NCBI GenBank assembly: GCA_031425235.1
Contig: JANPIZ010000004.1
Location: 66,251 to 130,250 of the forward strand
DNA length: 64,000 bases
Reading direction: 5' to 3'
Origin: Candidatus Nomurabacteria bacterium
GTDB taxonomy: Bacteria; Patescibacteriota; Minisyncoccia; Phycocordibacterales; UBA9973
Positions 4,962 to 57,465 of the stretch are shown in pieces. The notes below the pieces were generated by a model that was given only the letters and a program-made list of their open reading frames with translations, made no database searches and was not told where the DNA came from. Both the position numbers and the translations under genes were made by a program. The first letter of the stretch is position 1. The number at the start of each line of letters is the position of its first letter.

Positions 4962-5111
4962 TCGATTGCCAATGATATATCGTAATCCATATGTGGGGCA
5001 CAGAAAATTGCAAGATACCTACTATAAAAAATAAACGCAATGTTCTAGAGATCTGGCCGCACCTAACTTGAGCAGAGCAATTTTTTTTATGTTAAAATAT
5101 ACATCATGGCA

Positions 5112-5150
5112 CCTGCCCGCAATGCTTTCAGCATAGCTGATGCAGGCGGG
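5112..5150 (+). repeat. copy of the ~39-nt palindromic mini-element (5' of ftsK)
   Basis: cctgcccgcaatgctttcagcatagctgatgcaggcggg. Forms a 17-codon mini-ORF (MAPARNAFSIADAGGKK) whose TGA overlaps the ftsK ATG (ATGA). Confidence 0.8.
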
Positions 5151-5155
5151 AAAAA

Positions 5156-7357
5156 ATGAAACAAAATAAAAAAAATAAAACAACCAAAGAAAAGACGCAC
5201 ATACAAGACAACTCGAAAGGATTAAAAACTCACACAAAACACGGCATCGTAGGTGTTGTTTTTTTTGTGTTAGCGTTATTTTTTTTAATGGCGTGGCTCA
5301 ACATTGCTGGAGTAGCCGGTGACTTTTTTTACAACACACTATTCCTCCCTTTGCTTGGTTTTGGATACATACTATTACCTACACTTTTTGTATTACTTGG
5401 TTATTCATTTATAAAATCCGAAGTTCCGAATATTGGATGGGCACGAGTGTTTAGTGGTTCACTTTTTCTCCTCGCTGGTGAAGGCATTATAGATATCGCT
5501 TCCGGCACTCATGCAGGCGGACTTATCGGAGAAATTTTATCAACACCATTTGTATCATTGTTTGATGTGTACGCAAGTATACTTTTCCTCGGAGCAATTT
5601 TGATCATTTCTATTTTAGTAATGTTTGATGCAAAGATAGACTTCACTGCTATGCTCCAAAAAATAAAATCATTCTTTGTAAAAGAAACCCCGGTGATCGA
5701 AGACGATGTTGCGCTCCAACAGACCACTGAAGAAGAGGAAATGAATCCGCCGAAAGAAACTGCGACTGAAAAAATAAAAAGTATATTGAGTTCAGTAAAA
5801 TCAAAACCTGCAGAAGAAGAGGAGGAAATGCCCCTAAAAAACTATCAGCAGAAAAAAAGTGGGCTCGTCTCTACATACGTCCCTCCCCCACTATCTCTCC
5901 TTGCTGAGGACAGCGGTAAACCAAACACGGGTGACATCAAAGCAAATGCAAATATTATAAAACGTACGCTCGCAAACTTCGGTATCGAAGTTGAGATGGA
6001 TGAGATCACTGTTGGACCCACTGTTACTCGCTACGCACTCAAACCCGCCGAAGGAGTTAAACTTTCTCGTATTGTTGGTTTGCAAAATGATCTTGCTCTT
6101 TCCCTCGCCGCACACCCGATACGTATCGAAGCACCGATCCCTGGTAAGTCACTCGTAGGTATCGAAATACCAAACAAATCAAAATCAATTGTTGGACTTG
6201 CTACGCTCCTCTCTGATAATAAATTCAAGGATTCACCAAAACCACTGACGATGGCTCTCGGTCGCTCAATATCTGGTAAGGCGATGTTTAGCAACTTGGC
6301 AAAAATGCCGCATGTTCTGGTCGCCGGTACTACTGGTTCCGGAAAATCAGTAACTATCCATTCAATGATCACTTCCCTTTTATATAGAAATGGACCTGAC
6401 GACCTCAAATTCATCCTAATCGATCCAAAACGCGTCGAGCTTACGCTTTACAACAACATTCCTCACCTACTCACACCAGTGATCACTGATGCCAAGAAAA
6501 CAATACTTGCGCTCAAATGGGCAGCAAAAGAAATGGATCGACGATACGATATATTGGAACAAGAATCAGTGCGTGACATTGAATCGTATCATAATAATAT
6601 ATACGGCAAAGGTCCGAAAAAAATGAAGAAAAATAGTGAGGGTGTAGACGAAGAGGTGGTTCCGGACCGCATGCCTTATATTGTCATCTTTATCGACGAG
6701 CTTGCAGATATTATGAGCGCCTATCCACGAGAACTTGAGTCAGCCATCGTTCGCCTTGCACAAATGTCTCGTGCGGTGGGTATCCACTTAGTCCTTTCTA
6801 CGCAGCGGCCTGAAGTAAATGTCATCACTGGACTTATCAAAGCTAACGTTCCTGCTCGCGTCGCCTTGAAGGTTTCTTCGCAAATAGACTCACGTACAAT
6901 ATTGGATGCAGGAGGTGCGGAAAAACTCCTCGGTGCTGGTGACATGCTCTACTCTTCTGGTGAGGCGCAGCCTGAACGCCTTCAATCTGCATTTATTTCT
7001 GAAGGAGAAGTAAAGAAAGTAGTAAAATATCTCGCCGATGCATATCGGGACGAAATATCAGATGAGATAACACTTACTGCAGCCGCTGTAGCAGGCGATA
7101 AAAGCATTTTCGAAAGCACTCTCGACGACGATGGCGATGAAGATGAAATGTATGAGGAAGCTCGTGCGTGTGTCATCGAAGCAGGTAAAGCATCGACATC
7201 ATACCTACAAAGAAAGCTAAAACTGGGTTACGCACGTGCTGCTCGCCTCATGGATACACTCGAAGAACGAGGTGTTATCGGACCTGGAGATGGTGCAAAA
7301 CCTCGCGAGGTTTTGGAAAAAATCACTCATGATGAAAATGGAGCAAATGTAATATAG
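5156..7357 (+). CDS. ftsK: DNA translocase FtsK/SpoIIIE
   Basis: N-terminal TM helices, Walker A GTTGSGKS, C-terminal gamma wHTH (YLQRKLKLGYARAARLMDTLEERGVIGP). Confidence 0.9.
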   Translation: MKQNKKNKTTKEKTHIQDNSKGLKTHTKHGIVGVVFFVLALFFLMAWLNIAGVAGDFFYNTLFLPLLGFGYILLPTLFVLLGYSFIKSEVPNIGWARVFSGSLFLLAGEGIIDIASGTHAGGLIGEILSTPFVSLFDVYASILFLGAILIISILVMFDAKIDFTAMLQKIKSFFVKETPVIEDDVALQQTTEEEEMNPPKETATEKIKSILSSVKSKPAEEEEEMPLKNYQQKKSGLVSTYVPPPLSLLAEDSGKPNTGDIKANANIIKRTLANFGIEVEMDEITVGPTVTRYALKPAEGVKLSRIVGLQNDLALSLAAHPIRIEAPIPGKSLVGIEIPNKSKSIVGLATLLSDNKFKDSPKPLTMALGRSISGKAMFSNLAKMPHVLVAGTTGSGKSVTIHSMITSLLYRNGPDDLKFILIDPKRVELTLYNNIPHLLTPVITDAKKTILALKWAAKEMDRRYDILEQESVRDIESYHNNIYGKGPKKMKKNSEGVDEEVVPDRMPYIVIFIDELADIMSAYPRELESAIVRLAQMSRAVGIHLVLSTQRPEVNVITGLIKANVPARVALKVSSQIDSRTILDAGGAEKLLGAGDMLYSSGEAQPERLQSAFISEGEVKKVVKYLADAYRDEISDEITLTAAAVAGDKSIFESTLDDDGDEDEMYEEARACVIEAGKASTSYLQRKLKLGYARAARLMDTLEERGVIGPGDGAKPREVLEKITHDENGANVI

Positions 7358-7375
7358 TGTGGTATAGTAAGGATA

Positions 7376-7720
7376 ATGAGCATTACACTAAAAAAATTCC
7401 TACAAATTAGCAGCGTCTCTCTATTTTTCATTATTATTGTCGTATTTGCTTTTTTTAGGTCATACAATATCGTCTTTGGGCTGAAAATCAGAGATGTAAA
7501 CATCGTGGATGGATCTCGAGCCTTAGATGACACGTTACATATAACCGGAAACGCCAAAAATGCAGTAAATCTCGCTATAAATGGACGAACAATATCGATA
7601 AATCATGCAGGTGATTTTAATGAGACAATAGCTCTTCTTTCGGGGTATAATATAATAAACATAACTGCCAAAGATAAGTTTGGGTATGTTGATGAGAAGA
7701 ATTATAAATTAATGTATTAA
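7376..7720 (+). CDS. hypothetical membrane-anchored protein
   Basis: 114 aa; N-terminal TM ([14 protein letters not shown]) then beta-rich segment. Confidence 0.35.
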
Positions 7721-7724
7721 TTGT

Positions 7725-8804
7725 ATGATAAAGAAAAAAGTAAAAAAAGAGGATAAAACAGTGGGTGTGAGTGTGCTAGAAGATACACTCAAATCAATTC
7801 AAAATAAATTTGGAGAAGGATCGATCATGAAGTTCGGCGATTCCCCTAAGGTGGATATCAACGTCATACCTACTGGATCTATCGGACTCGACGAAGCGCT
7901 CGGTGTCGGTGGCATACCCCGTGGCCGAATCATCGAAATATTTGGACCGGAATCATCAGGCAAAACTACCCTTTCTCTACATATAGTAGCCGAAGCACAG
8001 AAGTCGGGTGGAGTGTGTGCTTATATTGATGCAGAACACGCAATGGATCCTGAGTATACTAAAAAGCTCGGAGTTAATATAAATAACTTACTTATCTCTC
8101 AACCCGACAATGGTGAACAAGCACTTGAAATAGTGGAGAGCTTGGTGCGCACTGGCAAGATCGACGTGATCGTCATTGACTCAGTGGCTGCGCTTACACC
8201 AAAAGATGAAATCGAGGGCGATATGGGAGCGTACCACGTCGGTAAACAAGCTCGGCTTATGTCCCAAGCACTTCGTAAACTCACAGCTATAGTGGCTCGT
8301 TCAAAGACTGTGGTTATCTTCATCAACCAAATCAGAATGCAGATAGGAGTGATGTTTGGTAATCCAGAGACTACACCAGGAGGTAAGGCGCTCAAATTTT
8401 ATACTTCTGTAAGACTTGATATTCGTAAAATTGCTCAAATTAAAAAAGGTGAAGAAGTCGTCGGCTCTCGCACTCGAGTGAAAGTAGTCAAAAATAAAGT
8501 AGCTGCACCATTCAAACAAACAGAATTTGATATTATTTATGGTGAAGGTATTTCAAGCGAAGGAGAAATGATGGCTCTCGGCGAAAAATTTAAAATTGTT
8601 GAAAAAACTGGTAACTCATACTTCTATGCCCCTACTGGTCCTGCCCGCAATGCTTCTAGCACAGCTAGTGCAGGCGGGGAAAAAGCTGAGAAGATAAAGC
8701 TCGGTGTCGGATATGACGCTACCCGTAAATTCCTCAAGGAAAACAAAAAAATAGGCGACGCGATACTCAAAGAAATCAAAAAGAAGTTTAAAGAAGAACT
8801 TTAA
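7725..8804 (+). CDS. recA: recombinase RecA carrying an in-frame mini-element insertion near the C-terminus
   Basis: GPESSGKTT Walker A, full RecA core; 13-aa [13 protein letters not shown] inserted between YAPTG and EKAEKIKLG relative to canonical RecA. Confidence 0.9.
8640..8679 (+). repeat. palindromic mini-element copy in frame in recA
   Basis: cctgcccgcaatgcttctagcacagctagtgcaggcgggg; central hairpin ctagc-aca-gctag. Confidence 0.85.
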
Positions 8805-8836
8805 AAATAATAAAAAATTAAAAATCAAACTTTTAG

Positions 8837-8905
8837 CCGGTACAGATTTTTGAAGCTTCAAAAATCCTGAAGTTGGCTTGCCGCCCTCCGCCAAACCCCT
8901 TAAAA
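8837..8905 (+). repeat. ~70-nt structured repeat (family B) downstream of recA
   Basis: GGTACaGATTTTTgaagcttcAAAAATCCTGAAGTT-GC-rich-AAACCCCtTAAAA. Near-identical organisation to the reverse-complement copy at 35896..35969. Confidence 0.6.
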
Positions 8906-8947
8906 GTTTATTTTGATTTTTTTATTTAAATTTGGTAGCATACCTTT

Positions 8948-9526: not shown

Positions 9527-9545
9527 GCTAAAAACTAAACAAATA

Positions 9546-9572: not shown

Positions 9573-9581
9573 ATTTTAAAT

Positions 9582-10804: not shown

Positions 10805-10864
10805 CCCCGTAGTGAATTTTGAAAAAAATATGGGTTTTAAACATTCTCAAAATCTACTACAGGG
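10805..10864. repeat. intergenic inverted-repeat element (family A), between TatD-like gene and rpsF
   Basis: ccccgtagtgaattttg ...26 nt... caaaatctactacaggg; arms are near reverse complements. Confidence 0.7.
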
Positions 10865-11693
10865 TAAAGACTCGCTTGGCATTTGCAAGAATTACTGCCG
10901 CAGCTTCTTCCTCAGGAATGTTCTTCAGCAGGGCAATTTTCTTAACTACTTCTCGCACATGTACTGGTTCATTTCTTTTACCTCTGTGTGGCGCTGGAGT
11001 TACATACGGGCAATCGGTTTCGGTCATTATACTGTCTAAAGGGATAAACTTGATCACTTCATCGTAGTCAGTCGTAAAAGTAATAACTCCGGTAAAAGAT
11101 AGCGTAAAACCAAAATCCAAAAATGCTTGCGCTTCAGGGATACCGCCGGCAAAAAAATGCACATCGCCTTTGACCTTGGCATGTTGTTTTAAAATTTCGA
11201 GCGCATCAAAATATGCATTTTTACTTTTGTCTTTTGGATTGTTGCGAATATGAAGCATAATCGGTTTATTCACTTCGTTGGCAAGTTCTATTTGAGCTAT
11301 TAATGCAGCTTTCTGTTTATCGATTGATTCATCGTCCATCCGATAGTAGTCGAGCCCACATTCCCCTATGCCGAGCACTTTTGGGTGTTTTAAAAGTTCT
11401 CGGTATGCATCTCTATCAAACACTTCACCGCGTGACGTAAACTCTTTACCACCCTCGCCCAATTCTTTTGTGTCGTGATATGAAGCTCCTGTGTGAATCG
11501 GATGTAGTCCCACAATAGCATACACATGTTCTGGATACTCGCTGATCATCTCTACAGCCTTGCGTGATGTATCTATCTGCGTGCCAACATTGATCACGAT
11601 GGTATTGTTATCAAGCGCACGCTTCATAACTTCATCTCGATCAGCATCGAAAGCATTAAAATTCACATGTGAATGTATATCTATGTATTTCAT
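10857..11693 (-). CDS. TatD-family metal-dependent hydrolase/DNase
   Basis: MKYIDIHSHV... (HxH motif), TatD-like length and motifs. ORF extends upstream to 11750 but MKYIDIH is the likely start. Confidence 0.8.
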   Translation of the reverse strand: MKYIDIHSHVNFNAFDADRDEVMKRALDNNTIVINVGTQIDTSRKAVEMISEYPEHVYAIVGLHPIHTGASYHDTKELGEGGKEFTSRGEVFDRDAYRELLKHPKVLGIGECGLDYYRMDDESIDKQKAALIAQIELANEVNKPIMLHIRNNPKDKSKNAYFDALEILKQHAKVKGDVHFFAGGIPEAQAFLDFGFTLSFTGVITFTTDYDEVIKFIPLDSIMTETDCPYVTPAPHRGKRNEPVHVREVVKKIALLKNIPEEEAAAVILANAKRVFTL

Positions 11694-23373: not shown

Positions 23374-23388
23374 CCTTATATTTTATCA

Positions 23389-23461
23389 CCCTGTAGTGAA
23401 TTTTGGAAATGCTCAAAGTACGTAAATTTAATAATTTACTTTTCCAAAATCTACTACGGGG
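23389..23461. repeat. intergenic inverted-repeat element (family A) between ileS 3' end and the start of gene 22141..23373
   Basis: ccctgtagtgaattttgg ...~38 nt... ccaaaatctactacgggg. Confidence 0.7.
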
Positions 23462-26400
23462 TATCAATTTTTACCTTAAATACCAAAGAGTCGGCTTTTA
23501 TTTCCCCGCCTGCACTAGCTGTGCTAGAAGCATTGCGGGCAGGTTCACCGTCGTTATTTTTAAAGTGTATGGTAGCAACTTGTACTGTTTTTTTCATATC
23601 CGCTTCGAATTTTTGAATCAATTTTTGTCCGTGCGCATCTGTTGCAAATGTGAGTGCCACTACGTCGCTCGGAGTCAAACCCATCTTTTTCCTCATATCC
23701 TGCAAGCCTCGTACAAGTTCACGATACGTTCCCTCTTCTTTTAATTCATGCGTGATCTTGGTATCGAGGGTAATTTTCGTGATACCTATTTTGATTTTTA
23801 CTAAATATTCAACATGTTTAATATTCAATTCATCTTTAATAATCTCGAGGTATTCTGGAGCCAAACTTTCAGCGATGATTTCCACTTGCTGCAGCGGCTG
23901 GCGAACTTTTATGCCTGCCTTCTGCCTGGCATCGAGACCGAGGGTAACAATATCTCGAGCAGTTTTCATCCGATCGATCACATTTGGTTTAAAAAAGAAG
24001 AAAAACTGAAATTTTTTCTTTGGCCACACGGAAAGATGCACGCTTTCCACATCAGTTTCATTTTTGAGCTGCTGCCAAATATCTTCCGCAGTAAACGGTG
24101 CAAATGGTGCTAATAGTTTTGATAAGGTTTTGAACACAAAATACAACGTTTTCTTTGCCTCAGCATCGCCTTCCTTTATTCGTTCTCGTGAGCGACGCAA
24201 ATACCATGTCGACAGGTCACCTATAAAATCGCGAATCGCACGTACGGGTTCGAGAAGTTTGTAATTATCTAAATGTTCAGTGGTTAATACTGTCAGTTCA
24301 TCAAGTCGAGCCAGTATCCATTGATCAAGTATGTTTGCTGACGTTGGTCTTTCGCTACTCTCTAAACTTGTATCTCGATACAATTCATAAAATGCAAGCA
24401 CGTTGTACAGCAAACTAAACACTTGCTGTGAAACTAACGCAACAGTTTTTTCATCAAAATTTTTCGATTCGCCTGGTTGATTGATCGAGTACATCCATAA
24501 GCGAATCGTGTCGACTCCGTATTTATCCATCATTGTCCAAGGGTCGACAATGTTACCAAGAGACTTTGACATTTTTTTACCTTTTGAATCAAGCAAATGC
24601 CCCAGACAAATTACATTTTTGTACGCCAATCCCCGACCCATAAGCACACCAACAGCATGCAACGTATAAAACCAGCCACGAGTCTGGTCGATGGCTTCGG
24701 AAATATAATCCGCTGGAAAACCAGGGCCCTCGACCCACTTTTTGTTTTCAAAAGGATAATGATCTTGAGCAAACGGCATCGCTCCGGAATCGAACCACAC
24801 ATCCATGACTTCTTTTGTTCGTGCAAGTTCACTACCACATACACAAACGAGCGTTACATTATCAATATATGGTCGATGTAAGTCGAGCTCATAATCTTCA
24901 TTGTGTGGTATGGTAACAAAATCAATTTGCTTATACTGTGCGTTCTTAAATAGAGCATTTTGTTCATTGCCACCCTTCTCCATAACTTCAGAGTGCCTGA
25001 AAAGTCCACCCGTCATCGCGATCGATTCGTCTACATTCAAGCCTTCGAGTACTGCATGCAACATCCAAATAGGTGCACCGTGCGAAATAATAAGAATTTT
25101 TTTATTTTTATGTTTTTCTTCGAGTTCGCAAAAAACATCTCCTATCCTTCTTTTTACATTGAGTAATGATTCACCACCATGGATAGGATTCAAAAATCTT
25201 TCCTTTTCATTTTTGAACATATCTCGATATTCATCCCAGGATTTGCCATTGAATTCTCCAGCGTCGAGTTCACCCAGCCTTTTATCGAAGACAATTTTAT
25301 TGTCTTCGATGCCTAATGATTTTTTTAGAATTTCCAATGTATCGCGTGTACGAACAAACGGAGACACCAATACAAAATCGAATTGAAGCCCTTCCTCTTT
25401 CATTTTTTTAGCTGAAGTTTCAACTTGTTGCTCTCCGACATTAGTGAGATGATCTTCATTCTCAACTCGCGATGATACCACGCCGTGTGGGCCACCCTTC
25501 ACATTACTTTCTGATTGCCCATGTCGCATGAGATAGTATTCGTTACCCGACTTTTTTGTTTTCTTTTTTAAATCTTCCACTCCCCCGACAACTTCTCTAG
25601 CATCACACGAATAACATTGCCATACCGGTAGAGGTGTGCCCCAATACCGCTCACGGGATATTGCCCAATCTTTTATTTCCCGCAACCATTCACCAAAGCG
25701 ACCATTTCTAATGTGGCTTGGCTCCCAGTTTATTTTTTGATTTTGGGAAATGAGTTCACTTTTAATTTTTCGATCTGACATCCGTATATACCATGAATCA
25801 CGTGCGTAGTAGATAAGCGCCGTTTTGCAACGCCAGCAATGTGGATATGAGTGTTTGTAGTTTTCTTGTTTGAAAAATAAATTTCTTTTCTTTAAGTCTT
25901 CTATGATATCGACTGCCAAAGTAGGTTTACCGTCGGTGTTAGTTTCTTTTACAAACCGGGCTTCCAAAAACCCTGTTCCTGAAACAAAGTTCCCTTCAGG
26001 GTTCACGAGATGATATTTAGGCAAGCCAATCTTTGTGCCAAGCACAAAGTCATCTTGACCATACATAACTGCAGTATGCACCACACCAGTACCATCTTCG
26101 ATGTTTACAAAGTCAGCAACATAAACTTTGAACATTTTTTCCGTAGATTCCCCTTTTTTCTCGAGCTGTTCTTTCAAAAATGGAAACAGTGGTTCGTATT
26201 CAAAACTGAGCAAATCCTTGCCTTTCATTTCTTCTGTAATTTCATATTCTCCACCGAGTATTTCAATTCTTTCTTTTGCTAATATTAAAAACTCATTTTC
26301 TTTTTTGACTTGTACGTATTCAATATCCTCACCTACAGCAAGAGCTACATTCCCGGGTAAAGTCCACGGAGTTGTCGTCCAAGCAAGTATGTATGTATTG

Positions 26401-27050
26401 TCCTCATTTTTTACTTTGAATTTTACATATACCGACAAATCTTTTACATCTTCGTATCCTTGTGCGAGTTCGTGCGAAGAAAGTGCGGTGCCACACCGTG
26501 GACACCATGGCACCACTTTATAGTCTTTATATAAAAGTTTCTGTTCATTAATTTTTGATACCACATTCCACAGTGACTCAATATATGTGTTATGATACGT
26601 CACATATGGATTGTCTTTATCTACCCAGTAGCCTACTCGGTCGCGATATTTATACCACACATCGACGTGTTTCCAGACACTTTCTTTGCATTTTTGATTA
26701 AATTCCGCGATACCAAAACTCTCAATTTCTCGTTTAGATTTGAGTCCAAGTTCTTTTTCGACGAGTAGCTCTACTGGCAAGCCATGGGTATCCCAGCCTC
26801 CCTTTCGGCGAACATGATACCCACGCATTGTTTTATATCGTGGAATCGCATCCTTGAATGATTGTGGAATGAGGTGATGTATACCTGGCATACCGTTTGC
26901 GGTTGGCGGTCCATCGTAAAATACAAATTCTTTTTTACCTTCAGTATTTTTTAAAGTTTTAGAAAAAATATTGTTCTCCTGCCAAAATTTTAAAACCTTT
27001 TCCTCGCGAAGAGCTTGCTCACTTTTTTGTTTTTTTTCTTGTTCGTCCAT
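23454..27050 (-). CDS. ileS: isoleucyl-tRNA synthetase with embedded histidine-phosphatase (PGAM-like) domain and a C-terminal mini-element insertion
   Basis: PTANGMPGIHH (HIGH region), KMSKSLGN, CP1 editing region; residues ~500-700 (YYLMRHGQSESN...SPFVRTRDT...LIISHGAPI) match the RHG histidine-phosphatase superfamily; [14 protein letters not shown] near the C-terminus. Confidence 0.9.
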   Translation of the reverse strand: MDEQEKKQKSEQALREEKVLKFWQENNIFSKTLKNTEGKKEFVFYDGPPTANGMPGIHHLIPQSFKDAIPRYKTMRGYHVRRKGGWDTHGLPVELLVEKELGLKSKREIESFGIAEFNQKCKESVWKHVDVWYKYRDRVGYWVDKDNPYVTYHNTYIESLWNVVSKINEQKLLYKDYKVVPWCPRCGTALSSHELAQGYEDVKDLSVYVKFKVKNEDNTYILAWTTTPWTLPGNVALAVGEDIEYVQVKKENEFLILAKERIEILGGEYEITEEMKGKDLLSFEYEPLFPFLKEQLEKKGESTEKMFKVYVADFVNIEDGTGVVHTAVMYGQDDFVLGTKIGLPKYHLVNPEGNFVSGTGFLEARFVKETNTDGKPTLAVDIIEDLKKRNLFFKQENYKHSYPHCWRCKTALIYYARDSWYIRMSDRKIKSELISQNQKINWEPSHIRNGRFGEWLREIKDWAISRERYWGTPLPVWQCYSCDAREVVGGVEDLKKKTKKSGNEYYLMRHGQSESNVKGGPHGVVSSRVENEDHLTNVGEQQVETSAKKMKEEGLQFDFVLVSPFVRTRDTLEILKKSLGIEDNKIVFDKRLGELDAGEFNGKSWDEYRDMFKNEKERFLNPIHGGESLLNVKRRIGDVFCELEEKHKNKKILIISHGAPIWMLHAVLEGLNVDESIAMTGGLFRHSEVMEKGGNEQNALFKNAQYKQIDFVTIPHNEDYELDLHRPYIDNVTLVCVCGSELARTKEVMDVWFDSGAMPFAQDHYPFENKKWVEGPGFPADYISEAIDQTRGWFYTLHAVGVLMGRGLAYKNVICLGHLLDSKGKKMSKSLGNIVDPWTMMDKYGVDTIRLWMYSINQPGESKNFDEKTVALVSQQVFSLLYNVLAFYELYRDTSLESSERPTSANILDQWILARLDELTVLTTEHLDNYKLLEPVRAIRDFIGDLSTWYLRRSRERIKEGDAEAKKTLYFVFKTLSKLLAPFAPFTAEDIWQQLKNETDVESVHLSVWPKKKFQFFFFFKPNVIDRMKTARDIVTLGLDARQKAGIKVRQPLQQVEIIAESLAPEYLEIIKDELNIKHVEYLVKIKIGITKITLDTKITHELKEEGTYRELVRGLQDMRKKMGLTPSDVVALTFATDAHGQKLIQKFEADMKKTVQVATIHFKNNDGEPARNASSTASAGGEIKADSLVFKVKIDTP
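23504..23543 (-). repeat. palindromic mini-element copy in frame in ileS
   Basis: Reverse complement is identical to the recA copy (cctgcccgcaatgcttctagcacagctagtgcaggcgggg). Confidence 0.85.
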
Positions 27051-30276: not shown

Positions 30277-32058
30277 CTACATTTTTTCTGGAGCTTGGAT
30301 ACCGAGCAGATGAAGCCCTGTTTTCATTATAAACGAAAATGCGTAGGTAAGAGTTATTTTATACGCTGAACTTTTGTCATCTTTACTCACAATGGTGTTA
30401 TTCGCATAAAAACTGTTAAACGATCTTGCAACTTCTATCAAATAATTCGCTATGTAGTGAGGCTCATATTCTCTCGCAGATCGTTCTACAACTTCATCAA
30501 ATGTATACAGCATTTTTTCAATTTCAAAAATTTCTGCTGGAAAGGCATGCGGGTCAGGGGAAATATTTTCTTTCTGTGACTTTTCTAATATAGATTTTGC
30601 TCGAGCATATGAATACTGAAGGTATGGACCCGAGTCTCCTTCAAATGAAATTGATTTGTCAAAATCGTATGCGATGTCCCCTCCAGTTGATTGTTTTAAG
30701 ATGGAGTATTTGAGCGCAGCGATACCGACGACTTCCGCGACTTTCGTTTTCTTTCCCCCGCCTGCACCAGCTATGCTGGAAGCATTGCGGGCAGGTTCAT
30801 CAGTCCATCTATCCTTCATTCGCTCTTCTACTAAATTAATAGTATCCCGAATCAAAGACTCGCCAGTAACCACATTCCCCTTTCGAGACGACATTTTACC
30901 CGAAGCCAAACGCATCATCCCGTGCGTAATGTGTTTCATTTTTGATTCGTATTCTGGATGAATAATGGAAATTGCTTTCGCGACTACCTTCATGTATTCC
31001 ATTTGTTCATTTGCAGTTACCACAATACTCAAATTCATTTCAGGCAACTTGGCAAACTTTTCCTCAGTTAATCCTAGTTCTTTTGTCTCGTAGGTAGGTA
31101 ATCCTTTCGAAGTCATGAAAACCCTGGTATGAAGTTTTGGGTCATATTTTTCCGCCTTGAAAACAACTGCTCCGTCGGAATCTTCAAAAATCATCTTGCT
31201 CCCAAGTGGGTCGATAGCTTTATTCATATTATCCTCGACCAGTTTTTGACCAAGCGGCGCTACGTAACTTTCCAAGAAATAATATTCAAATTTTGTGCCG
31301 AGTATTGTATACAAATCTTCAAACGCATTCATGGTCGCCTCAAAACCCCACGCATATATTTCATTTATCTTTTCATCACTCTTATCGTAAAGTTTTTTAT
31401 TTATTTCATCTATTTCGGCTTTCGCGTTTGGGTCATCTTCGTACAAGGCAGCGCCAGAAACATATGCCTCGCCGATGCGTGCCGCTTGGTCCGTGTGCGT
31501 ACCTGACCTGTCCTCAAGTCCTTTGTTTTTCAAAAGGCCGTATATCGCCTTGGCCACATGAAGGCCGACATCGCCTTGGTAGTTTGCGCGTGACACTACT
31601 GCTCCCGAATGTTCTAAAATAGTAGCTACTGATTCGCCAATCGCATTTGTCATCAAGTGACCTATGTGAAAAGGCTTGAATGGATTTGGATCAGTGTACT
31701 CTACCATTATTTTTTGACCTGAGAGAGTTTTGTTTTTACCAACCTCGTACCCTTTATTTACAATTTCTTCTACACTATGAGCAAAAAATTCACGTGATAA
31801 ATAGAAGTTTATAAACCCGGCCCCGGCGACCTCAATTTTTTCTATATGTGTATCTGTATTCAGTCGGAGCATTTCCGTAACTATTTTTTCAGCGAAATCT
31901 TTTGGATTCATCTGCACGCCCTTGGCTACAGCTAAAGCAATATTCGTAGAATAATCTCCCATTTTTAAATCAGCTGGATGTTCAAGAGTTATAGTACTCA
32001 CCTCTATGTTGAGATTTTGAAGTGCGTCTTGTATTAATTTTTTTATATTAGCGTGCAT
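30277..32058 (-). CDS. argS: arginyl-tRNA synthetase with in-frame mini-element insertion
   Basis: PFHIGHLMTN HIGH motif, MSSRKGN (KMSKS-like), C-terminal DALR-type helical domain; PARNASSIAGAGGG insertion; start probably MHANIKK (ORF extends to 32112). Confidence 0.85.
   Translation of the reverse strand: MHANIKKLIQDALQNLNIEVSTITLEHPADLKMGDYSTNIALAVAKGVQMNPKDFAEKIVTEMLRLNTDTHIEKIEVAGAGFINFYLSREFFAHSVEEIVNKGYEVGKNKTLSGQKIMVEYTDPNPFKPFHIGHLMTNAIGESVATILEHSGAVVSRANYQGDVGLHVAKAIYGLLKNKGLEDRSGTHTDQAARIGEAYVSGAALYEDDPNAKAEIDEINKKLYDKSDEKINEIYAWGFEATMNAFEDLYTILGTKFEYYFLESYVAPLGQKLVEDNMNKAIDPLGSKMIFEDSDGAVVFKAEKYDPKLHTRVFMTSKGLPTYETKELGLTEEKFAKLPEMNLSIVVTANEQMEYMKVVAKAISIIHPEYESKMKHITHGMMRLASGKMSSRKGNVVTGESLIRDTINLVEERMKDRWTDEPARNASSIAGAGGGKKTKVAEVVGIAALKYSILKQSTGGDIAYDFDKSISFEGDSGPYLQYSYARAKSILEKSQKENISPDPHAFPAEIFEIEKMLYTFDEVVERSAREYEPHYIANYLIEVARSFNSFYANNTIVSKDDKSSAYKITLTYAFSFIMKTGLHLLGIQAPEKM
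30755..30795 (-). repeat. palindromic mini-element copy in frame in argS
   Basis: Reverse complement cctgcccgcaatgcttccagcatagctggtgcaggcggggg; central stem ccagc-ata-gctgg with compensatory changes. Confidence 0.85.
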
Positions 32059-32062
32059 AAAT

Positions 32063-32485
32063 TTATTTTCTTCCCGTACTCCCAAATTTACCTTCACCAC
32101 GAGCTGAGTCACTTAATACCTCGACTTCTTCCAGCTCGCCGATGACTATAGGTATTATAACAAGTTGAGAAACTTTATCACCTTCTTCAAATGTATAAGG
32201 TTCGCTCGAAAGGTTTACTAGTAAGGTATTGTATTCGCCTCTATATCCTGCATCAAACACACCACCCATGTGTGTAAGCCCAGCTTTAGAGATACTACCT
32301 TTATCCATAATGATTCCTGCATAACCTTCAGGGAATTCTAACGCAAATCCATGCCAGAAGCGATAATGTTCCCCTGGCCCCACCGTCACTGTTTCCATAG
32401 CATACATATCCATACCCACATCACCCGGATGATGGTAAGTCGGCAACTTGGCTCCATCTTTTAATTTTTTTATTCTGATTTTCAT
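32063..32485 (-). CDS. dut: dUTP diphosphatase
   Basis: Conserved dUTPase motifs (AGxD, GVFDAGYRGE, KFGSTGRK-type motif V). Confidence 0.85.
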   Translation of the reverse strand: MKIRIKKLKDGAKLPTYHHPGDVGMDMYAMETVTVGPGEHYRFWHGFALEFPEGYAGIIMDKGSISKAGLTHMGGVFDAGYRGEYNTLLVNLSSEPYTFEEGDKVSQLVIIPIVIGELEEVEVLSDSARGEGKFGSTGRK

Positions 32486-46934: not shown

Positions 46935-47423
46935 CTATGAAAATAAATCCGTTATGTAAAATTGTAAATTCTTTGAAATGGTTTGCCCGCCTTCGACCCA
47001 AGACACAGTGATTGTCACCAGTTTTGTTTGATTATCAACTACACCCGACGCAGCAAGGTTTTGACTTCCATCTCGATATGCTGAAGAAAATACAACTTTT
47101 CTAGTAAAGATATCTACAACGTTCGGTGTGCTAGATAAAATCCATGTGCCCCCGGTAAAAGTAAGATAATAGTTAGTATCAAGATTTAAACTAGAAATAT
47201 TAGACCAACCGTTGTCCCGCAAAATGCGAGTTGCCTCTGCACCCTCTTCTAGAAGCATTGCAGATTGGGATTGATGTACAGACTGTCGTGCAAGATAAAT
47301 AGATTTCTGGGTCACCAATGAAGCTGCGATAATAACTACAGTGACGATAGAAGTAGCAACAATTATTTCAACCATAAGAGAACCTTTTTGTTTGTTGCTT
47401 ATAAAATTAAATTTGTCTTGCAT
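46935..47423 (-). CDS. type IV pilin-like protein
   Basis: KGSLMVEIIVATSIVTVVII prepilin N-terminus. Confidence 0.65.
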   Translation of the reverse strand: MQDKFNFISNKQKGSLMVEIIVATSIVTVVIIAASLVTQKSIYLARQSVHQSQSAMLLEEGAEATRILRDNGWSNISSLNLDTNYYLTFTGGTWILSSTPNVVDIFTRKVVFSSAYRDGSQNLAASGVVDNQTKLVTITVSWVEGGQTISKNLQFYITDLFS

Positions 47424-50952: not shown

Positions 50953-50974
50953 TTGATGATTAAAAAGTCGTTAC

Positions 50975-51006
50975 AAAAAAAATCCCCCATTACGGGGGAT
51001 TTTTTC
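50975..51006. terminator. bidirectional intrinsic terminator
   Basis: aaaaaaaatcccccattacgggggattttttc. Confidence 0.7.
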
Positions 51007-52795: not shown

Positions 52796-53947
52796 ATGTT
52801 AGACTTAAAAACATTCAAATCAGCTCTGGAACAACTAGAACAAGACAGAAAAATACCAAAAGAAAAAATACTAGACGCAATTGAGCAAGCGATGGCCGCC
52901 GCCTACAAAAAAGATTACGGGAAAAAAGGACAAATCATCCGAGCAAAATTCGACCTTGATACTGGTAAGACCAATTTTTATCAAGTAAAGATCGTGGTAG
53001 ATGAATCTATTGCAATTTTAGACGGAGAAGATGACAGTTCCGACGATGAGTCAGACGAGCGCGTTCATTTTAATGCCGAGCATCATATACTTCTCGAAGA
53101 TGCTAAAAAAATAAAAAAGGACGCTGAACTAAATGATGAGATGATATTCCCCCTCGAGGCAAAAGAGGACTATGGCCGTATTGCTGCCCAAACAGCCAAG
53201 CAGGTTATAATTCAGAAAATTCGGGAAGCAGAACGTGTGTCTATCATCGATGAATATGGCACAAAAGAAGGAGAAATCATTTCTGGTATAGTACAAAAAG
53301 TGGAACGAGGTAATATTTATATTGATTTCAATCGTGCTACAGGGATATTACCTGCGGAAGAGCAGATCCCAGGAGAATTCTGGGAACGGGGACGAAGAAT
53401 CCGAGCATATCTATACTCAGTGGAAGACACTCAACGGGGTATAAATCTACGTCTTTCACGCACGCATCCTAAATTCATAGAGAAGCTTTTCATGATGGAA
53501 GCTCCAGAAATACAGAATGGGGTTGTAGAAATAAAATCTATCGCTCGCGAAGCGGGAGCACGTTCCAAAATTGGTGTATATTCAAACGATGAACATATCG
53601 ATGCTGTCGGCTCATGTGTCGGACAAAAAGGTACTCGTGTAAACACTATAACGCAAGAACTCGGCGGAGAAAAAATCGATATTATCCCTTGGTCTGCAGA
53701 TCCAAAAATGTTTGTCACCAACGCTCTTTCACCCGCAAAAGTCATTTCTATTGAAATCGATGAGAAAGAGCATAAAGCTATCGTCGAAGTGGGCGACGAT
53801 CAACTCTCCCTCGCAATTGGTAAAGGTGGACAAAATGTACGCCTTGCTGCCAAGCTTACTGGTTGGAGAATAGACATCAAAGGTGATGGAAAGATGGTAA
53901 GCTCTGAGGAAGATGCAGAAGAAGTAGTTGAAAAAACTGAGGAATAG
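52796..53947 (+). CDS. nusA: transcription termination/antitermination factor NusA
   Basis: NusA N-terminal domain, S1 domain (GEIISGIVQKVERGNIYIDF), two KH domains. Confidence 0.9.
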   Translation: MLDLKTFKSALEQLEQDRKIPKEKILDAIEQAMAAAYKKDYGKKGQIIRAKFDLDTGKTNFYQVKIVVDESIAILDGEDDSSDDESDERVHFNAEHHILLEDAKKIKKDAELNDEMIFPLEAKEDYGRIAAQTAKQVIIQKIREAERVSIIDEYGTKEGEIISGIVQKVERGNIYIDFNRATGILPAEEQIPGEFWERGRRIRAYLYSVEDTQRGINLRLSRTHPKFIEKLFMMEAPEIQNGVVEIKSIAREAGARSKIGVYSNDEHIDAVGSCVGQKGTRVNTITQELGGEKIDIIPWSADPKMFVTNALSPAKVISIEIDEKEHKAIVEVGDDQLSLAIGKGGQNVRLAAKLTGWRIDIKGDGKMVSSEEDAEEVVEKTEE

Positions 53948-53961
53948 AATATAATAAAAAT

Positions 53962-54507
53962 ATGAACTTGTGGCACGACATAACAATAGGAAAAAATGTA
54001 CCTGAAGAATTTAATTGTATAGTCGAAATTCCAAAGGGCTCACATAATAAGTATGAGATAGATAAGGAAACAGGTCTTATAGGTCTTGACCGCGCAAATT
54101 ATAATTCTGCGCCATACCCTTTTGATTACGCTTTTATTCCTCAAACTCTGTGGGATGATGGAGATGCGCTTGATGTAATAATTCTTACTACCTACCCACT
54201 CGAAGTAGGGATAATGGTTGCTGCGCGACCAATCGCAATCATGGATATGAATGATTCGGGTGAGTCGGACGCAAAAATAATTGCGGTGCCGGTAAACGAC
54301 AGAAGGTTTGAAGGTATACAAGATTTAAATGACTTAAACAAGCATATGCTTAAAGAATATGCTCATTTTTTTGAAACATACAAAATACTAAAGGGAGATG
54401 ACCCTCGTAAATATCCCGTAACTATTTCAGGCTATAAAGACAAAAGTGAAGCAATAAAGGCAATCAATCACTCAATTAAATTATATAACGATAAATTTAA
54501 TAAATAA
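53962..54507 (+). CDS. ppa: inorganic pyrophosphatase (family I)
   Basis: EIPKGS..KYE, DGDALDVI motifs. Confidence 0.9.
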   Translation: MNLWHDITIGKNVPEEFNCIVEIPKGSHNKYEIDKETGLIGLDRANYNSAPYPFDYAFIPQTLWDDGDALDVIILTTYPLEVGIMVAARPIAIMDMNDSGESDAKIIAVPVNDRRFEGIQDLNDLNKHMLKEYAHFFETYKILKGDDPRKYPVTISGYKDKSEAIKAINHSIKLYNDKFNK

Positions 54508-54575
54508 TGGGAGTAAGAAAAATAATCCCAAATGGTGAACCGTAAATTTTAGCACAAGCTAGAATTGGAGCCCTT

Positions 54576-55103
54576 GTGGTTTTTCCTGTACTTGTTGATT
54601 CTGGAAATGGACATGAAGAAAAAATGTTTGAAAAATTCGTGCGCCCGCCAGGTACACGAATTATCGCATCAAAAGATGATAAAATATTTTTGCAAAAAGA
54701 AATACGGTTAGAAACAAATAATACATTCGATTGGCGCCTACCAGGAGGTAAGGTCATGGATAGTTTTGATGAGTATAAAGATTTTATCGGCAAGGAAATC
54801 CCTGAAAAAATTATATTAGAGGCTGGTATAAAAGAACTACGCGAAGAAGCTCTTCTGAACACAGACACAATTAAAATGTTTAAGAAATCCACGTGCGGAG
54901 CATTAGTGGAGTGGGATTTATATTATTTAGTAGCTGAAAACACGAGCCCCGTTGAACACACGCATGATGAAGGAGAAGAAATAATAGAGGGAAAATGGTT
55001 TTCCGCTGATGAAATTCTAGAAATGTGTAAAAATGGAGAAATTGATGAAGATCGAACTGTATCTGCATTGTACCAATTCATACATAAAAGTTTGAATAAC
55101 TAA
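54576..55103 (+). CDS. Nudix hydrolase
   Basis: LPGGKV...GIKELREEAL Nudix-box-like segment. Confidence 0.6.
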   Translation: MVFPVLVDSGNGHEEKMFEKFVRPPGTRIIASKDDKIFLQKEIRLETNNTFDWRLPGGKVMDSFDEYKDFIGKEIPEKIILEAGIKELREEALLNTDTIKMFKKSTCGALVEWDLYYLVAENTSPVEHTHDEGEEIIEGKWFSADEILEMCKNGEIDEDRTVSALYQFIHKSLNN

Positions 55104-55191
55104 CATTGCGCGAAAACACTAATACGTTGTATAATTAATGGAGGCCTTTTATTTTTTACAAAGGTTTAATTATAAGTTTAACTTTAAAATT

Positions 55192-55911
55192 ATGAAAAAA
55201 TATTTAAGTTTATTGATTGTTTTGTTGTTAGTGGGTACAGTGGGTATAAGTGCAGCACGAGCAGAGACTAGTGTCAGTCTTGACGCTCAAGGTGAAGTTA
55301 AGCTCGACGGAAGTGGAGGAAAAATGCAAGAACTTCGAAAGGAAATGCAAGATAAAAAAATGGAGCTAAAAGCAGGATTCGAAGCAAAAAGACAAGAAAT
55401 GAAGACTAAGTGGGAAAGCTTGAGACTCGAAGCAAAAGCAAAAATGGAAGCCTTGAAAGAAAAAGTTAAAGAGGAAAAGGACGCGGCAAAAGCAAAGATA
55501 AAAGAACTCAGAATCACTGGACGTGAAAACGCGCTAGCTCGATTTGACGTCGCAATTAGTAGGATGAGTACACTTTCTGACAAAGTCAGCCTTCACATTA
55601 CGAATCTAAAAGCAAAAGATATAGATGTGACTGCGGCAACAGCTTTTGTTGTCACAGCCGACGCAAAGCTAGAAGCAGCAAAAGCTAAAACAGTCGCAGT
55701 AAACGAATTGCTTTCAAAGTCGGTTGACCAGCTTACCGCCGAAGAAAAAACAAAATTACGAACCCTCACTCAAGAGACACAAGCGCTTCTTCAAGATGCT
55801 CGCCAAGCATTGAAGGAAGCCGTAAAAGCACTCAAGGAAGCCGTAAGAATAAAAATAGAGGCCAAGGCAAAAGTAAAAGCTGAAACAAGTACTGAGGCAA
55901 CCACTCAATAA
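55192..55911 (+). CDS. secreted coiled-coil K/E/A-rich protein (hypothetical)
   Basis: Signal peptide MKKYLSLLIVLLLVGTVGISAARA, then long K/E/A-rich helical repeats; ORF extends upstream to 55138. Confidence 0.5.
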   Translation: MKKYLSLLIVLLLVGTVGISAARAETSVSLDAQGEVKLDGSGGKMQELRKEMQDKKMELKAGFEAKRQEMKTKWESLRLEAKAKMEALKEKVKEEKDAAKAKIKELRITGRENALARFDVAISRMSTLSDKVSLHITNLKAKDIDVTAATAFVVTADAKLEAAKAKTVAVNELLSKSVDQLTAEEKTKLRTLTQETQALLQDARQALKEAVKALKEAVRIKIEAKAKVKAETSTEATTQ

Positions 55912-55940
55912 ATATATTTTATAAATTTTAACAAAAAATT

Positions 55941-56195
55941 ATGGACACAGAAAAAAAATCAAATGGAGCAGTTATAGGTTTGGTGATCATTATACTTATC
56001 CTGGTGATTGGAGGTATCTATATGTGGCAAAGTAATGCGGGTACTGACACGATAGAAAACTCAACACAGGGAGAAACTCCAACCGAAAGTGGCTCTATCA
56101 CAGCGGAAGACTCCGCAAATCTCGACACCTTAGACAAGGATCTTGATGGAGCAAACACAAACATAGACGCAGCTGCAATAAATAGTGTGCAGTAA
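55941..56195 (+). CDS. small single-pass membrane protein (hypothetical)
   Basis: 84 aa, TM AVIGLVIIILILVIGGIYMW. Confidence 0.4.
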   Translation: MDTEKKSNGAVIGLVIIILILVIGGIYMWQSNAGTDTIENSTQGETPTESGSITAEDSANLDTLDKDLDGANTNIDAAAINSVQ

Positions 56196-56288
56196 TTTGC
56201 TCGTAAAAAATAACCCTATGGCTTTTACGAGTCATAAGGTTATTTTTTTTGACAAAATACACTAATATATATAAGATACATATACTTG

Positions 56289-56354
56289 TCCCGTAGTAAA
56301 TTTTTGATTACGGAACATAAAAATACACCTTATTAGTTAAAATTTTACTACTGG
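56289..56354. repeat. intergenic inverted-repeat element (family A) in tig 5' UTR, abutting the start codon
   Basis: cccgtagtaaatttttg ...~33 nt... aaaattttactactggg then ATG; upstream TTGACA-17-TAAGAT candidate promoter at ~56249. Confidence 0.7.
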
Positions 56355-56355
56355 G

Positions 56356-57465
56356 ATGCTAAAAACAAAAATCACAAAACTACCAAAAAGTGAGGTTGAA
56401 ATAGAGGGTTCACTACATGAAGACGCCTTTGAACAGTACTACAGCAAGGCACTTAAAAACATAGGCGCAAATGTAGAGCTTGATGGATTTAGGAAAGGTA
56501 AAGTTCCTGAAAGTGTTCTTGTTTCTAACATTCCAGAAAATCATATATTGGAAGAAATGGCTCAGCTTGCAATAAACGAACACTACCCCAACATATTAGA
56601 AAGTGAAAAAATTGATGCTATCAGTCGACCAGAAATTTCCATTACTAAACTCGCTCGAAAAAATCCACTTGAGTTTAAAATCAAAACAGCGATATTACCG
56701 CACATAACACTCCCTGACTATAAAACAATAGCCAAAGATATCTCGGCAAGTGTTACCGATGCAGAAAAAAATGTAGTGGTGTCTGACGATGATGTCGAAA
56801 ATGCTATTTTGGATATTAGAAAATCTCGTGCGCCGCGAACACATGTAACGGAAGTAGCTACAGAGGAGAACAAAGAAACACCCGAAAACACAGAACCAAA
56901 AGTAGAACCTGCCCGCAATGCTTCTGACATAGCTGATGCAGGCGGGGAACTCCCAGAATTCAATGATGAATTTGTGAAAAATCTTGGACCATTTGAAAAT
57001 GTCAAAGATTTTAAAAATAAATTAAAAATAAATTTGAAACTCGAGAAAGAAAACGCTCAGAAAGAAAAAACAAGATTGAAAATCATTGAAGAAATAATTG
57101 AAAAAAGCCATCTTGAAGTACCTGAAATTCTTATTGATATCGAAGTCAATAAAATTTTGCAAAAAATGGAAGCAGATATAACTCAAATGGGCTTAAAATT
57201 TGAGGATTATTTAAAGCACATAAACAAAACCATTGAAGACTTAAAAAAAGAATTCCGCATTGATGGCGAGAAAAAAGCTAAACTTTCACTTATCTTAAAT
57301 GAAATATCTAAGGTAGAAAAGATAGTCCCCGATCCTGAGCTTGTAAAAAAAGAAGTCGAGGCTATCATGGAACACTACAAAGATGCTGACCTCGAACGAG
57401 CAATAATGCATGTAGAAAATGTGTTAGTTAATGATCAAATTTTCAAACTTCTTGAAACTCAATAA
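56356..57465 (+). CDS. tig: trigger factor (short form, apparently lacking PPIase domain) with in-frame mini-element insertion
   Basis: DGFRKGKVP hallmark; 369 aa; PARNASDIADAGG inserted just before conserved ELPEFNDEF. Confidence 0.8.
   Translation: MLKTKITKLPKSEVEIEGSLHEDAFEQYYSKALKNIGANVELDGFRKGKVPESVLVSNIPENHILEEMAQLAINEHYPNILESEKIDAISRPEISITKLARKNPLEFKIKTAILPHITLPDYKTIAKDISASVTDAEKNVVVSDDDVENAILDIRKSRAPRTHVTEVATEENKETPENTEPKVEPARNASDIADAGGELPEFNDEFVKNLGPFENVKDFKNKLKINLKLEKENAQKEKTRLKIIEEIIEKSHLEVPEILIDIEVNKILQKMEADITQMGLKFEDYLKHINKTIEDLKKEFRIDGEKKAKLSLILNEISKVEKIVPDPELVKKEVEAIMEHYKDADLERAIMHVENVLVNDQIFKLLETQ
56908..56947 (+). repeat. palindromic mini-element copy in frame in tig
   Basis: cctgcccgcaatgcttctgacatagctgatgcaggcgggg (central hairpin degenerate in this copy). 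Confidence 0.85.

Follow-up and report, generated by a model that had tools for sequence, protein, structure and literature searches.

Five copies of a 39-nt repeat of the form CCTGCCCGCAATGC-(hairpin)-GCAGGCGGG are present in a 64-kb stretch of a Candidatus Nomurabacteria contig (JANPIZ010000004.1; hereafter, the window), with four of them lying inside the housekeeping genes recA, ileS, argS, and tig and the fifth lying at the 5′ end of ftsK (Table 1). Judged from sequence comparisons, the five repeats are probably copies of a non-autonomous, GC-rich, and imperfectly palindromic mini mobile element—that is, selfish DNA resembling the Rickettsia palindromic elements (RPEs). Their interpretation as an insertion element, put forward in an original prediction made from the letters of the window, is supported. 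The element belongs neither to the RPEs nor to the repetitive extragenic palindromes (REPs), and no earlier description of it was found.

A search of the window with the 17-nt left arm, allowing up to three mismatches, returned five copies where 0.04 were expected, refining the coordinates of the five near-identical repeats originally noticed and giving a density of 0.078 per kb. Five or more arm matches were obtained in 0 of 100 shuffles of the window, and the strong matches of an nhmmer profile built from the five copies were, within the window, these five only. The G+C content of the element is ~65%, against 35–40% for the window. All five copies run in the sense of the host gene and share one common frame encoding a PARNAS..AGG peptide, with variants including PARNASSIAGAGG and PARNASDIADAGG; the four copies already assigned to housekeeping genes in the same orientation and frame were confirmed by NCBIfam models to reside in recA, ileS, argS, and tig. 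As for the covariation originally described for the central stem, the three stem pairs CTAGC/GCTAG, TCAGC/GCTGA, and CCAGC/GCTGG are present as stated, but the stem of the tig copy is broken (CTGAC/GCTGA). The three antisense open reading frames (ORFs) said to run through the element (5022–5237, 8616–8894, and 23403–23744) were found, together with two more (30656–30961 and 56718–57005).

Comparison of recA alleles shows the element entering as a unit. The DNA of the filled allele in locus L001 is 95.5% identical to that of the empty allele in L005, and the sole length difference is the 39 nt CCTGCC...GGCGGG, located between ..TCTGGA and GAGAAAGCC.., without target-site duplication and without loss of bases. 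The filled allele is present in four independent assemblies (L001–L004). In an alignment of 120 RecA relatives, the majority form of 346 aa runs unbroken through ..YFY-xPx-G/EK.., and PARNAS..AGG occurs in P0001–P0004 only; furthermore, P0002 is 100% identical to the element-free P0109 outside the insert zone. Judged by its RecA relatives, the organism belongs to the Patescibacteria and is Parcubacteria/Nomurabacteria-like. The peptides are thus lineage-specific insertions, as orthologue alignment had been expected to reveal. An exact-protein look-up returned no record for the window RecA, which is 94–97% identical to more than 25 empty RecAs and 91% identical to the filled P0002–P0004. Because it is closer to empty than to filled RecAs, either two independent insertions or many precise losses have occurred at the same G/EK codon boundary.

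A second site was resolved at ftsK. In the relative L001, ftsK starts ATGGCAAAAAAC and the site is empty, while the 5′ end in the window reads ATGGCA, then the element, then AAAAAATGA, corresponding to an insertion in frame 0 after codon 2 of the L001-type start, again without target-site duplication. The copy originally placed 5′ of ftsK is therefore present, but it does not simply lie upstream, sitting instead after codon 2 of the ancestral start. The 17-codon upstream ORF that now contains it is either the product of the insertion and a later frame change in an A-run, or the outcome of a homopolymer assembly error in that A-run; if the latter, ftsK starts at 5106.

Other RecA relatives were found to carry unrelated short inserts at the very same G/EK boundary, including ..RASKDSARHDSAE.., ..EKAPASAKGSGE.., ..PPDLPLHKGEEK.., ASAKAG repeats, and PAR...GG variants. 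Two of three such inserts examined as DNA are GC-rich palindromes, namely those in L206 (~6930–6975; GCCGCGC..GCGCGGC plus GATTCTGCAGAATC) and L208 (~6925–6960; CCTCCCCCT..AGGGTGAGG). Since unrelated palindromes share this boundary, in-frame palindromic mini-inserts are, on the evidence of these sequences, general in this clade, and the RecA turn is a permissive hot spot.

The positions of the inserts in the host proteins agree with the earlier expectation that the in-gene copies would map to loops, being a turn in RecA, a linker in trigger factor (Tig), a loop in arginyl-tRNA synthetase (ArgRS), and a tail in isoleucyl-tRNA synthetase (IleRS). In RecA, the insert interrupts the alignment to the solved structure within the stretch that corresponds to E. 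coli ..YSYKGE.., and the site is presumably the turn of the β-hairpin of the C-terminal domain (..AWYSYKG/EKIGQG..) as known from the E. coli sequence and structure. In an AlphaFold model of RecA that is poor overall (mean predicted local distance difference test [pLDDT] score 52.7) and serves for the local contrast around the insert only, the insert is coil (pLDDT 28–51) between two strands (pLDDT 73–79), which is consistent with a loop position. Alignment to solved Tig places the insert in the linker; the P. horikoshii ArgRS has a gap at the loop before helix KVAEVVGIAALKY in which the argS insert lies; and the IleRS insert lies past the last residue alignable to solved IleRS. The position in IleRS differs between genomes, being aa 284 in L101 and the tail in the window. 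As separate observations, the trigger factor is 369 aa long and lacks the peptidyl-prolyl isomerase domain, its N- and C-terminal domains aligning to solved Tig and ~48 residues, including the element peptide, standing in place of ~100. In addition, the 1198-aa IleRS contains an inserted histidine-phosphatase/phosphoglycerate-mutase-like domain (residues ~497–680; 25011–25562, minus strand), with cobC, SixA, and dPGM-type NCBIfam matches (E = 1e-10 to 1e-21) that split the ileS model match in two.

A scan of species-representative genomes with the pattern CCTGCCCGCAATGC-N12-20-GCAGGCGGG located the element at at least 120 loci, so that the further copies called for by the original prediction exist in many other genomes. 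The streamlined genomes of the candidate phyla radiation, to which the prediction had assigned the element, do harbor it, but it also extends across phyla and into viral contigs. The matches listed include Patescibacteria (Nomura-, Davies-, Roizman-, Levy-, Falkow-, Magasanik-, Moran-, Berkel-, and Saccharibacteria, among others); Verrucomicrobiota (including Verrucomicrobiae), Kiritimatiellia, and Lentisphaerae, on contigs of 100–546 kb; a 5.09-Mb Deltaproteobacteria chromosome and a Desulfobacteraceae metagenome-assembled genome (MAG); and one short Woesearchaeota contig (L066, 4.2 kb). Among 127 copies in the matches listed, the commonest form (77 copies) is 36 nt long, with the sequence CCTGCCCGCAATGC-TWCGCATAGCGWT-GCAGGCGGG and the reading PARNASHSDAGG, and the 39-nt form seen in the window accounts for 30; the termini are CCTGCCCGC...GCAGGCGGG. 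In IMG/VR, 13 viral stretches contain the element, with up to 5 copies per 33-kb contig, and a 36-mer search of INPHARED phages and PLSDB plasmids gave no match. The identity of the element across phyla suggests horizontal spread, possibly by a viral route. A full-text literature search for the DNA and peptide strings, and for MITEs (transposable elements of the miniature inverted-repeat type) or palindromic elements in Patescibacteria, returned nothing relevant, and a paper on tRNA introns in Patescibacteria mentions neither the element nor a GIY-YIG gene of the kind described below.

Within the viral set, contigs L209–L221 (predicted viral genomes of 50–60% G+C) were observed to carry 2–5 copies of one variant (..TTCGCAACGCGAGG..), as exemplified by L210 with copies at 509–544, 4250–4285, and 4499–4534. 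Each contig has two or three copies within a larger inverted repeat (CTCTCACAGAG...CTCTGTGAGAG), the remaining copies lying outside it. Loci L102 and L121 are listed with the viral contigs for the TTCGCAACGCGAGG variant, and the Deltaproteobacteria chromosome has the same variant in the same kind of context.

ORFs of 120 codons or more hold 85 of 129 copies in the matches listed, the other 44 lying outside such ORFs, and 56 of the 85 genic copies are sense and in frame 0. Under a stricter read-through rule, which demands an ORF of at least 150 codons that is open for at least 40 codons on either side of the element, 48 of the copies listed qualify, 37 of them using frame 0. Of the 19 copies with a length not divisible by three, none lies in a read-through ORF, in a test that is partly true by construction and in which intergenic copies and gene-frameshifting copies are not separable. 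Read from the sequence, stop codons close a single one of the six frames in the 36-nt form and two in the 39-nt form, so the frame bias is not forced by them. Genic copies make use of other frames and of the antisense orientation as well. The frame-0 reading is a peptide of 12–13 residues rich in Pro, Ala, Arg, Asn, Ser, and Gly. Because both orientations (31:19) occur in the duplicated tRNA fragments described below, the genic bias is best attributed to selection for a tolerable flexible peptide rather than to a property of the insertion step. In AT-rich genomes the element is bordered by purine-rich sequence (..AAA, element, GAA..), with A at position −1 in 55% of copies and rarely at +1; this composition is a weak preference, with no defined target.

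Single copies fold as a bulged hairpin, with energies of −18 to −22 kcal/mol as RNA (z about −2 to −2.7) and −9 to −13 kcal/mol as DNA. Covariation was assessed from pair counts for three candidate structures over 51 distinct 36-mers and 500 shuffles. A slipped structure, B (pairs 5–9:32–36, 12–14:28–30, and 16–19:23–26), scored 0.146 against 0.071 for shuffled sequences, and its mirror, A (1–5:28–32 and 11–14:18–21), scored 0.141 against 0.076, with 0 of 500 shuffles reaching the observed score in either case. The fully symmetric 16-bp hairpin (1–16:21–36) was rejected, its score of 0.048 falling below the 0.064 of the shuffles and being reached by 500 of 500. Pair 16:26, for example, is UA in 23, AU in 19, and GC in 2 sequences; pair 12:30 is UA in 42 and CG in 5; pair 3:30 is UA in 43, CG in 4, and AU in 1; and pair 11:21 is AU in 30 and UA in 7. 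As the arms are fixed by the pattern in the genome scan, the arm covariation was drawn from independently collected loci containing a GIY-YIG gene. The compensatory stem changes exceed every shuffle control, in line with the original view that structure and not the peptide is conserved.

Structure A on one strand is structure B on the other, which is most simply read as a requirement for each DNA strand to be able to form the same object, namely a bulged hairpin of 32 nt preceded by a 4-nt 5′ tail (CCYG). Such a mirrored constraint on two strands favors a DNA function over an RNA function, because an RNA function would constrain the transcribed strand alone and because copies occur in both orientations relative to transcription. 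No Rfam match was obtained in the window at the gathering score, and a hammerhead-like or other ribozyme was rejected by inspection, with CUGAUGA/GAAA-like letters being absent from the 36-nt form. The element enters DNA as an exact unit without target duplication. In the mechanism proposed here, its functional form would be a DNA hairpin or cruciform, single-stranded or extruded, that is recognized by an enzyme supplied in trans, and the bias in frame and orientation as well as the placement in loops would represent survivorship under purifying selection in essential genes. Spread across phyla would be horizontal, possibly via viruses.

With respect to the enzyme, clustering of ORFs from 120 element-bearing loci revealed no recurrent transposase, and a small GIY-YIG gene was found to recur in seven of these loci, with the element just 5′ of its start codon in four. 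Element copies also lie near tRNA genes somewhat more often than expected. A metagenome scan with this GIY-YIG subfamily yielded 80 loci (L126–L205). The protein is 79 aa long and, according to Pfam, consists of the catalytic domain alone (PF01541, E = 8e-18, residues 3–70), with no separate DNA-binding domain. A tRNA gene begins 3–25 nt past the GIY-YIG stop codon in 67 of the 80 loci, and the tRNAs of these cassettes include those for Gln, Asn, Leu, Ile, Lys, Glu, Val, Thr, Asp, and Met. The 5′ portion of the same tRNA is duplicated on the 5′ side of the ORF (~nt 0 to 20–29; hereafter, the pseudo-half); this duplicate is 96% identical to the real tRNA, and its D-arm appears to supply a Shine–Dalgarno-like AGGA, and hence a putative ribosome-binding site, for the ORF. 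In 61 of 63 cassettes, the pseudo-half is broken up by one or two inserts from the CCYGCCYGC superfamily to which the element belongs, inserted at nt 4–22 (modes 10 and 7) in both orientations. Element density reaches ~27 per kb in the pseudo-half, against ~0.08 per kb in the 3-kb flanks on either side of these cassettes. Among the collected loci, none had an empty tRNA allele.

Upstream of the GIY-YIG ORF in L186, L171, and L130, one hairpin element holds a second one in its apical loop, and these nested copies suggest that loop DNA is a preferred target. In L096, positions 3640–3960 comprise two tandem 120-nt units that precede an intact tRNA-Thr without a GIY-YIG ORF, each unit combining a stretch that resembles a promoter, a 5′ fragment of tRNA-Thr into which the element is inserted, and a spacer of 32 nt.

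By association, the 79-aa GIY-YIG protein is the best candidate for a nuclease mobilizing the element, a proposal that should be regarded as tentative. The association has three possible readings: (a) GIY-YIG moves the element, in the manner proposed for RAYTs and REPs; (b) the element prefers tRNA-like loops or junctions; or (c) the breaking of the direct repeat protects the GIY-YIG gene against deletion. Because the CCYGCCYGC superfamily alone occupies the pseudo-halves, even though related genomes have other palindromic mini-inserts, (a) or (b) is favored. A fuller proposal can be made, in which the element would be the non-autonomous partner in an unrecognized type of prokaryotic mobile system and the minimal GIY-YIG nuclease, lodged in front of tRNA genes, would make or keep the duplicated tRNA 5′ half and would cut and reinsert hairpins of 36–39 nt without target duplication, the hairpins spreading between phyla partly by viruses and seeding loops in essential proteins; taken as a whole, this is unlikely.

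Several points weigh against these readings. The neighborhood of the GIY-YIG gene outside the pseudo-half is not enriched for the element, which argues against a simple cis action of GIY-YIG, and in L053 and L096 the element interrupts tRNA 5′ halves that lie upstream of intact tRNAs, with no GIY-YIG ORF present; together, these observations weaken (a). The GIY-YIG gene in the window itself stands alone, with neither an element nor a tRNA beside it, and no GIY-YIG match was found in ~200 kb of element-bearing loci from the PVC (Planctomycetes–Verrucomicrobia–Chlamydiae) group. A GIY-YIG-driven cut-and-paste of hairpins is, to our knowledge, without precedent. As to the element as a mobile unit, a single strict empty/filled DNA pair (L005/L001) was recovered, the scan pattern fixes 23 arm bases and therefore gives no unbiased view of arm variation in the genome set, and several low-GC MAGs among the matches listed bear doubtful labels of Gammaproteobacteria or Bdellovibrionales.

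Two other accounts of how the element moves, or comes to be concentrated in the pseudo-halves, were considered. The enrichment may be indirect, either through survivorship, in that an insertion would break a 26–30-bp direct repeat that would otherwise delete the GIY-YIG gene, or through a preference for loops or junctions that is tolerated in pseudo-copies only, with GIY-YIG not being the mobilizer. This is a distinct possibility: it would accommodate the varying insert position and orientation, the interrupted pseudo-halves that lack a GIY-YIG ORF, the unenriched wider neighborhood, and the nested copies in hairpin loops, but an occupancy of 61 of 63 needs very high activity or very strong selection, and the other palindromic families of related genomes are absent from the pseudo-halves. 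Alternatively, and somewhat unlikely, the element could be REP-like and moved by a Y1 HUH transposase of the RAYT or IS200/IS605 TnpA type encoded elsewhere, making the GIY-YIG link incidental. The 5′ tetranucleotide with its bulged hairpin, the lack of target-site duplication, the possible precise loss, the inverted neighboring copies resembling REPINs in GC-rich genomes (L019, L062, L065, L090, and L117), and the nested insertions, which suggest single-stranded targets, are all in keeping with this mover. The tetranucleotide, however, is CCYG and not GTAG, the copies are mostly genic, the A at −1 is far from a strong 5′ target motif, and REP–RAYT pairs are normally lineage-specific, not identical across phyla. 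Furthermore, neither a recurrent transposase ORF nor a RAYT gene was found among the recurrent ORFs of the 120 loci, in a search confined to those loci, and a tblastn search of 1.3 Mb with an IS200-type TnpA gave no match, in a weak test owing to its approximate query.

Explanations other than selfish DNA fare less well. A structured motif of benefit to the host—a pause signal in transcription or translation, or a signal for RNA processing, recombination, or uptake—is improbable: the hairpin is stable as RNA (−18 to −29 kcal/mol), its sequence is strongly conserved across phyla, and copies are somewhat over-represented near tRNA genes, but near-identical alleles differ in its presence, its position differs between orthologues (as in IleRS of L101 and of the window), both orientations are used with the constraint mirrored on both strands, no Rfam match exists in the window, and the copies are far fewer than those of uptake sequences. 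It is still harder to regard PARNAS..AGG as a functional module, such as a tag, modification site, or interaction motif, that is selected as protein. The use of frame 0 by 66–77% of genic copies would fit such a module, and this is set against the 35–60% of copies outside long ORFs (depending on the ORF criterion), the use of other frames and of antisense, the free variation of central residues (S/F/D, T/I/H, and S/G/D) through compensatory DNA changes, and the placement in loops and tails of unrelated host proteins. The likelihood of an assembly, binning, or sequencing artefact is negligible. All sources are metagenome assemblies, and the archaeal match L066 and some of the low-GC "Gammaproteobacteria" labels may be binning or labeling errors, but one recA insert recurs in four independent assemblies, copies lie in frame within long ORFs, and the matches come from many projects and assemblers, with contigs of up to 5 Mb.

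Among known systems, the RPEs, reportedly described by Ogata and colleagues in 2000 and named also in PMC1166351 and PMC1779305, show the closest analogy of habit: a palindromic repeat lies in frame in housekeeping genes of a reduced genome, adding a peptide at permissive surface sites, intergenic copies exist too, and a transposase is likewise still sought. The original prediction of an RPE-style element thus holds for the in-frame palindrome at permissive sites, but not for length and host range, as the element is 36–39 nt long rather than roughly 100–150 bp and occurs in Patescibacteria, PVC-group bacteria, Deltaproteobacteria, and viral contigs rather than in Rickettsia and relatives; the two are set apart by length and host. 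The identical sequence across phyla, the mirrored covariation of two strands, and a candidate partner gene are further differences. With REPs and REPINs, the element has in common a GC-rich imperfect palindrome of 20–40 nt whose 5′ tetranucleotide is conserved, the absence of target duplication, inverted doublets in some genomes, and a small nuclease gene flanked by the repeat. It differs in its 5′ end (CCTG, CCCG, or CCAG instead of GTAG), its mostly genic location (85 of 129 copies in the matches listed, for ORFs of at least 120 codons) as opposed to an extragenic one, the nature of the flanked gene (GIY-YIG instead of Y1 HUH), and its cross-phylum rather than lineage-specific occurrence. 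The mobile GC clusters of yeast mitochondrial DNA are also short GC-rich palindromes in an AT-rich genome, sometimes inserted in frame (var1), but they are organellar and unrelated in sequence.

Palindrome-associated transposable elements (PATEs), derived from IS200/IS605, are similarly non-autonomous, hairpin-rich, and free of target-site duplication, but have a fixed 5′ target of 4–5 nt that the element lacks, flank positions other than −1 being weak. The element is, moreover, too short for the two separate ends of a PATE or MITE, and no related full-length insertion sequence (IS), or parent IS with the same ends, was found in the collected loci, which were the loci covered by the scan. A classical MITE, which the imperfect terminal inverted repeats (CCYGCCYGC at both ends) recall, was rejected because neither the recA pair nor the ftsK site has a target-site duplication. 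As for the cassette, SegB of phage T4 is a free-standing GIY-YIG homing endonuclease encoded in a tRNA gene cluster (PMC2330249). The cassette resembles it in having a small GIY-YIG gene next to tRNA genes, whose conservation makes them targets well suited to horizontal spread, and differs in that its 79-aa protein is a catalytic domain only, that it contains a 20–30-nt duplication of the tRNA 5′ end broken by a palindromic element, and that it is known from sequence alone.

Table 1. Copies of the element, their host genes, and related features. Coordinates refer to the window unless a locus is named; host genes were assigned by NCBIfam.
Feature	Coordinates	Strand	Remarks
Copy 1	5112–5150	+	39 nt; centre TTTCAGCATAGCTGAT; peptide PARNAFSIADAGG; ancestral ftsK start, after codon 2
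Copy 2	8640–8678	+	recA, flanked by Gly305 and Glu319
Copy 3	23505–23543	−	ileS, C-terminal tail; same letters as copy 2
Copy 4	30757–30795	−	argS, centre TTCCAGCATAGCTGGT; loop preceding helix KVAEVVGIAALKY
Copy 5	56908–56946	+	tig linker, directly before ELPEFNDEF
ftsK	5156–7357	+	
recA	7725–8804	+	
ileS	23454–27050	−	
argS	30277–32112	−	
tig	56356–57465	+	
Upstream ORF MAPARNAFSIADAGGKK (then stop)	5106–5159	+	17 codons; TGA overlaps present ftsK ATG at 5156 (ATGA)
Weak sixth match	47237–47261 (nhmmer, E = 0.016); 30-nt stretch 47237–47266	−	CTGCAATGCTTCTAGAAGAGGGTGCAGAGGC
Stand-alone GIY-YIG gene	1243–1515	−	90 aa; 47–54% identical to tRNA-linked subfamily
GIY-YIG gene, example	L173 942–1175		
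GIY-YIG gene, example	L205 3001–3231		

The weak sixth match has GCAATGCTTCTAG and GTGCAG.GGC in common with the element and lies inside an ORF (46935–47423), where it would be read in the +1 frame as SAMLLEEGAEA; it may be a decayed old copy or a chance resemblance. Apart from the element, two pairs of conserved stretches of 26–28 nt were noticed in the window (1216–1243 with 23377–23404, and 10841–10866 with 23438–23463), carrying ..CCCTGTAGTGAATTTT.. and ..AAAATCTACTACRGGGTA; each member of the former pair overlaps, or directly adjoins, a minus-strand gene's start codon, and both pairs may be leader or promoter motifs. A further family, composed of an A-run, a GC-hairpin, and a T-run (582–614, 1580–1612, 50974–51006, and 62260–62292), resembles bidirectional intrinsic terminators. 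Among the element-bearing loci, genes for 23S rRNA intervening-sequence proteins (four-helix bundle, PF05635) recur in L029, L035, L046, L073, L088, and L101, not adjoining the element.

Essential and highly conserved proteins of ultra-small bacteria, namely RecA, trigger factor, two aminoacyl-tRNA synthetases, and FtsK, have thus been remodeled by what is probably a selfish hairpin of 12–13 codons, whereas the textbook example of in-frame selfish palindromes in essential genes was previously Rickettsia alone. Such inserts give rise to spurious antisense ORFs, unusual start codons, and loops that look lineage-specific, and should be recognized by annotators and in structure prediction. One and the same 36-nt sequence, shared by Patescibacteria, PVC-group bacteria, Deltaproteobacteria, and viral contigs, provides a traceable marker of gene flow among hard-to-culture organisms, and the element in a pseudo-half beside a minimal GIY-YIG gene offers a testable candidate for the way in which REP- and RPE-like mini-elements may move.

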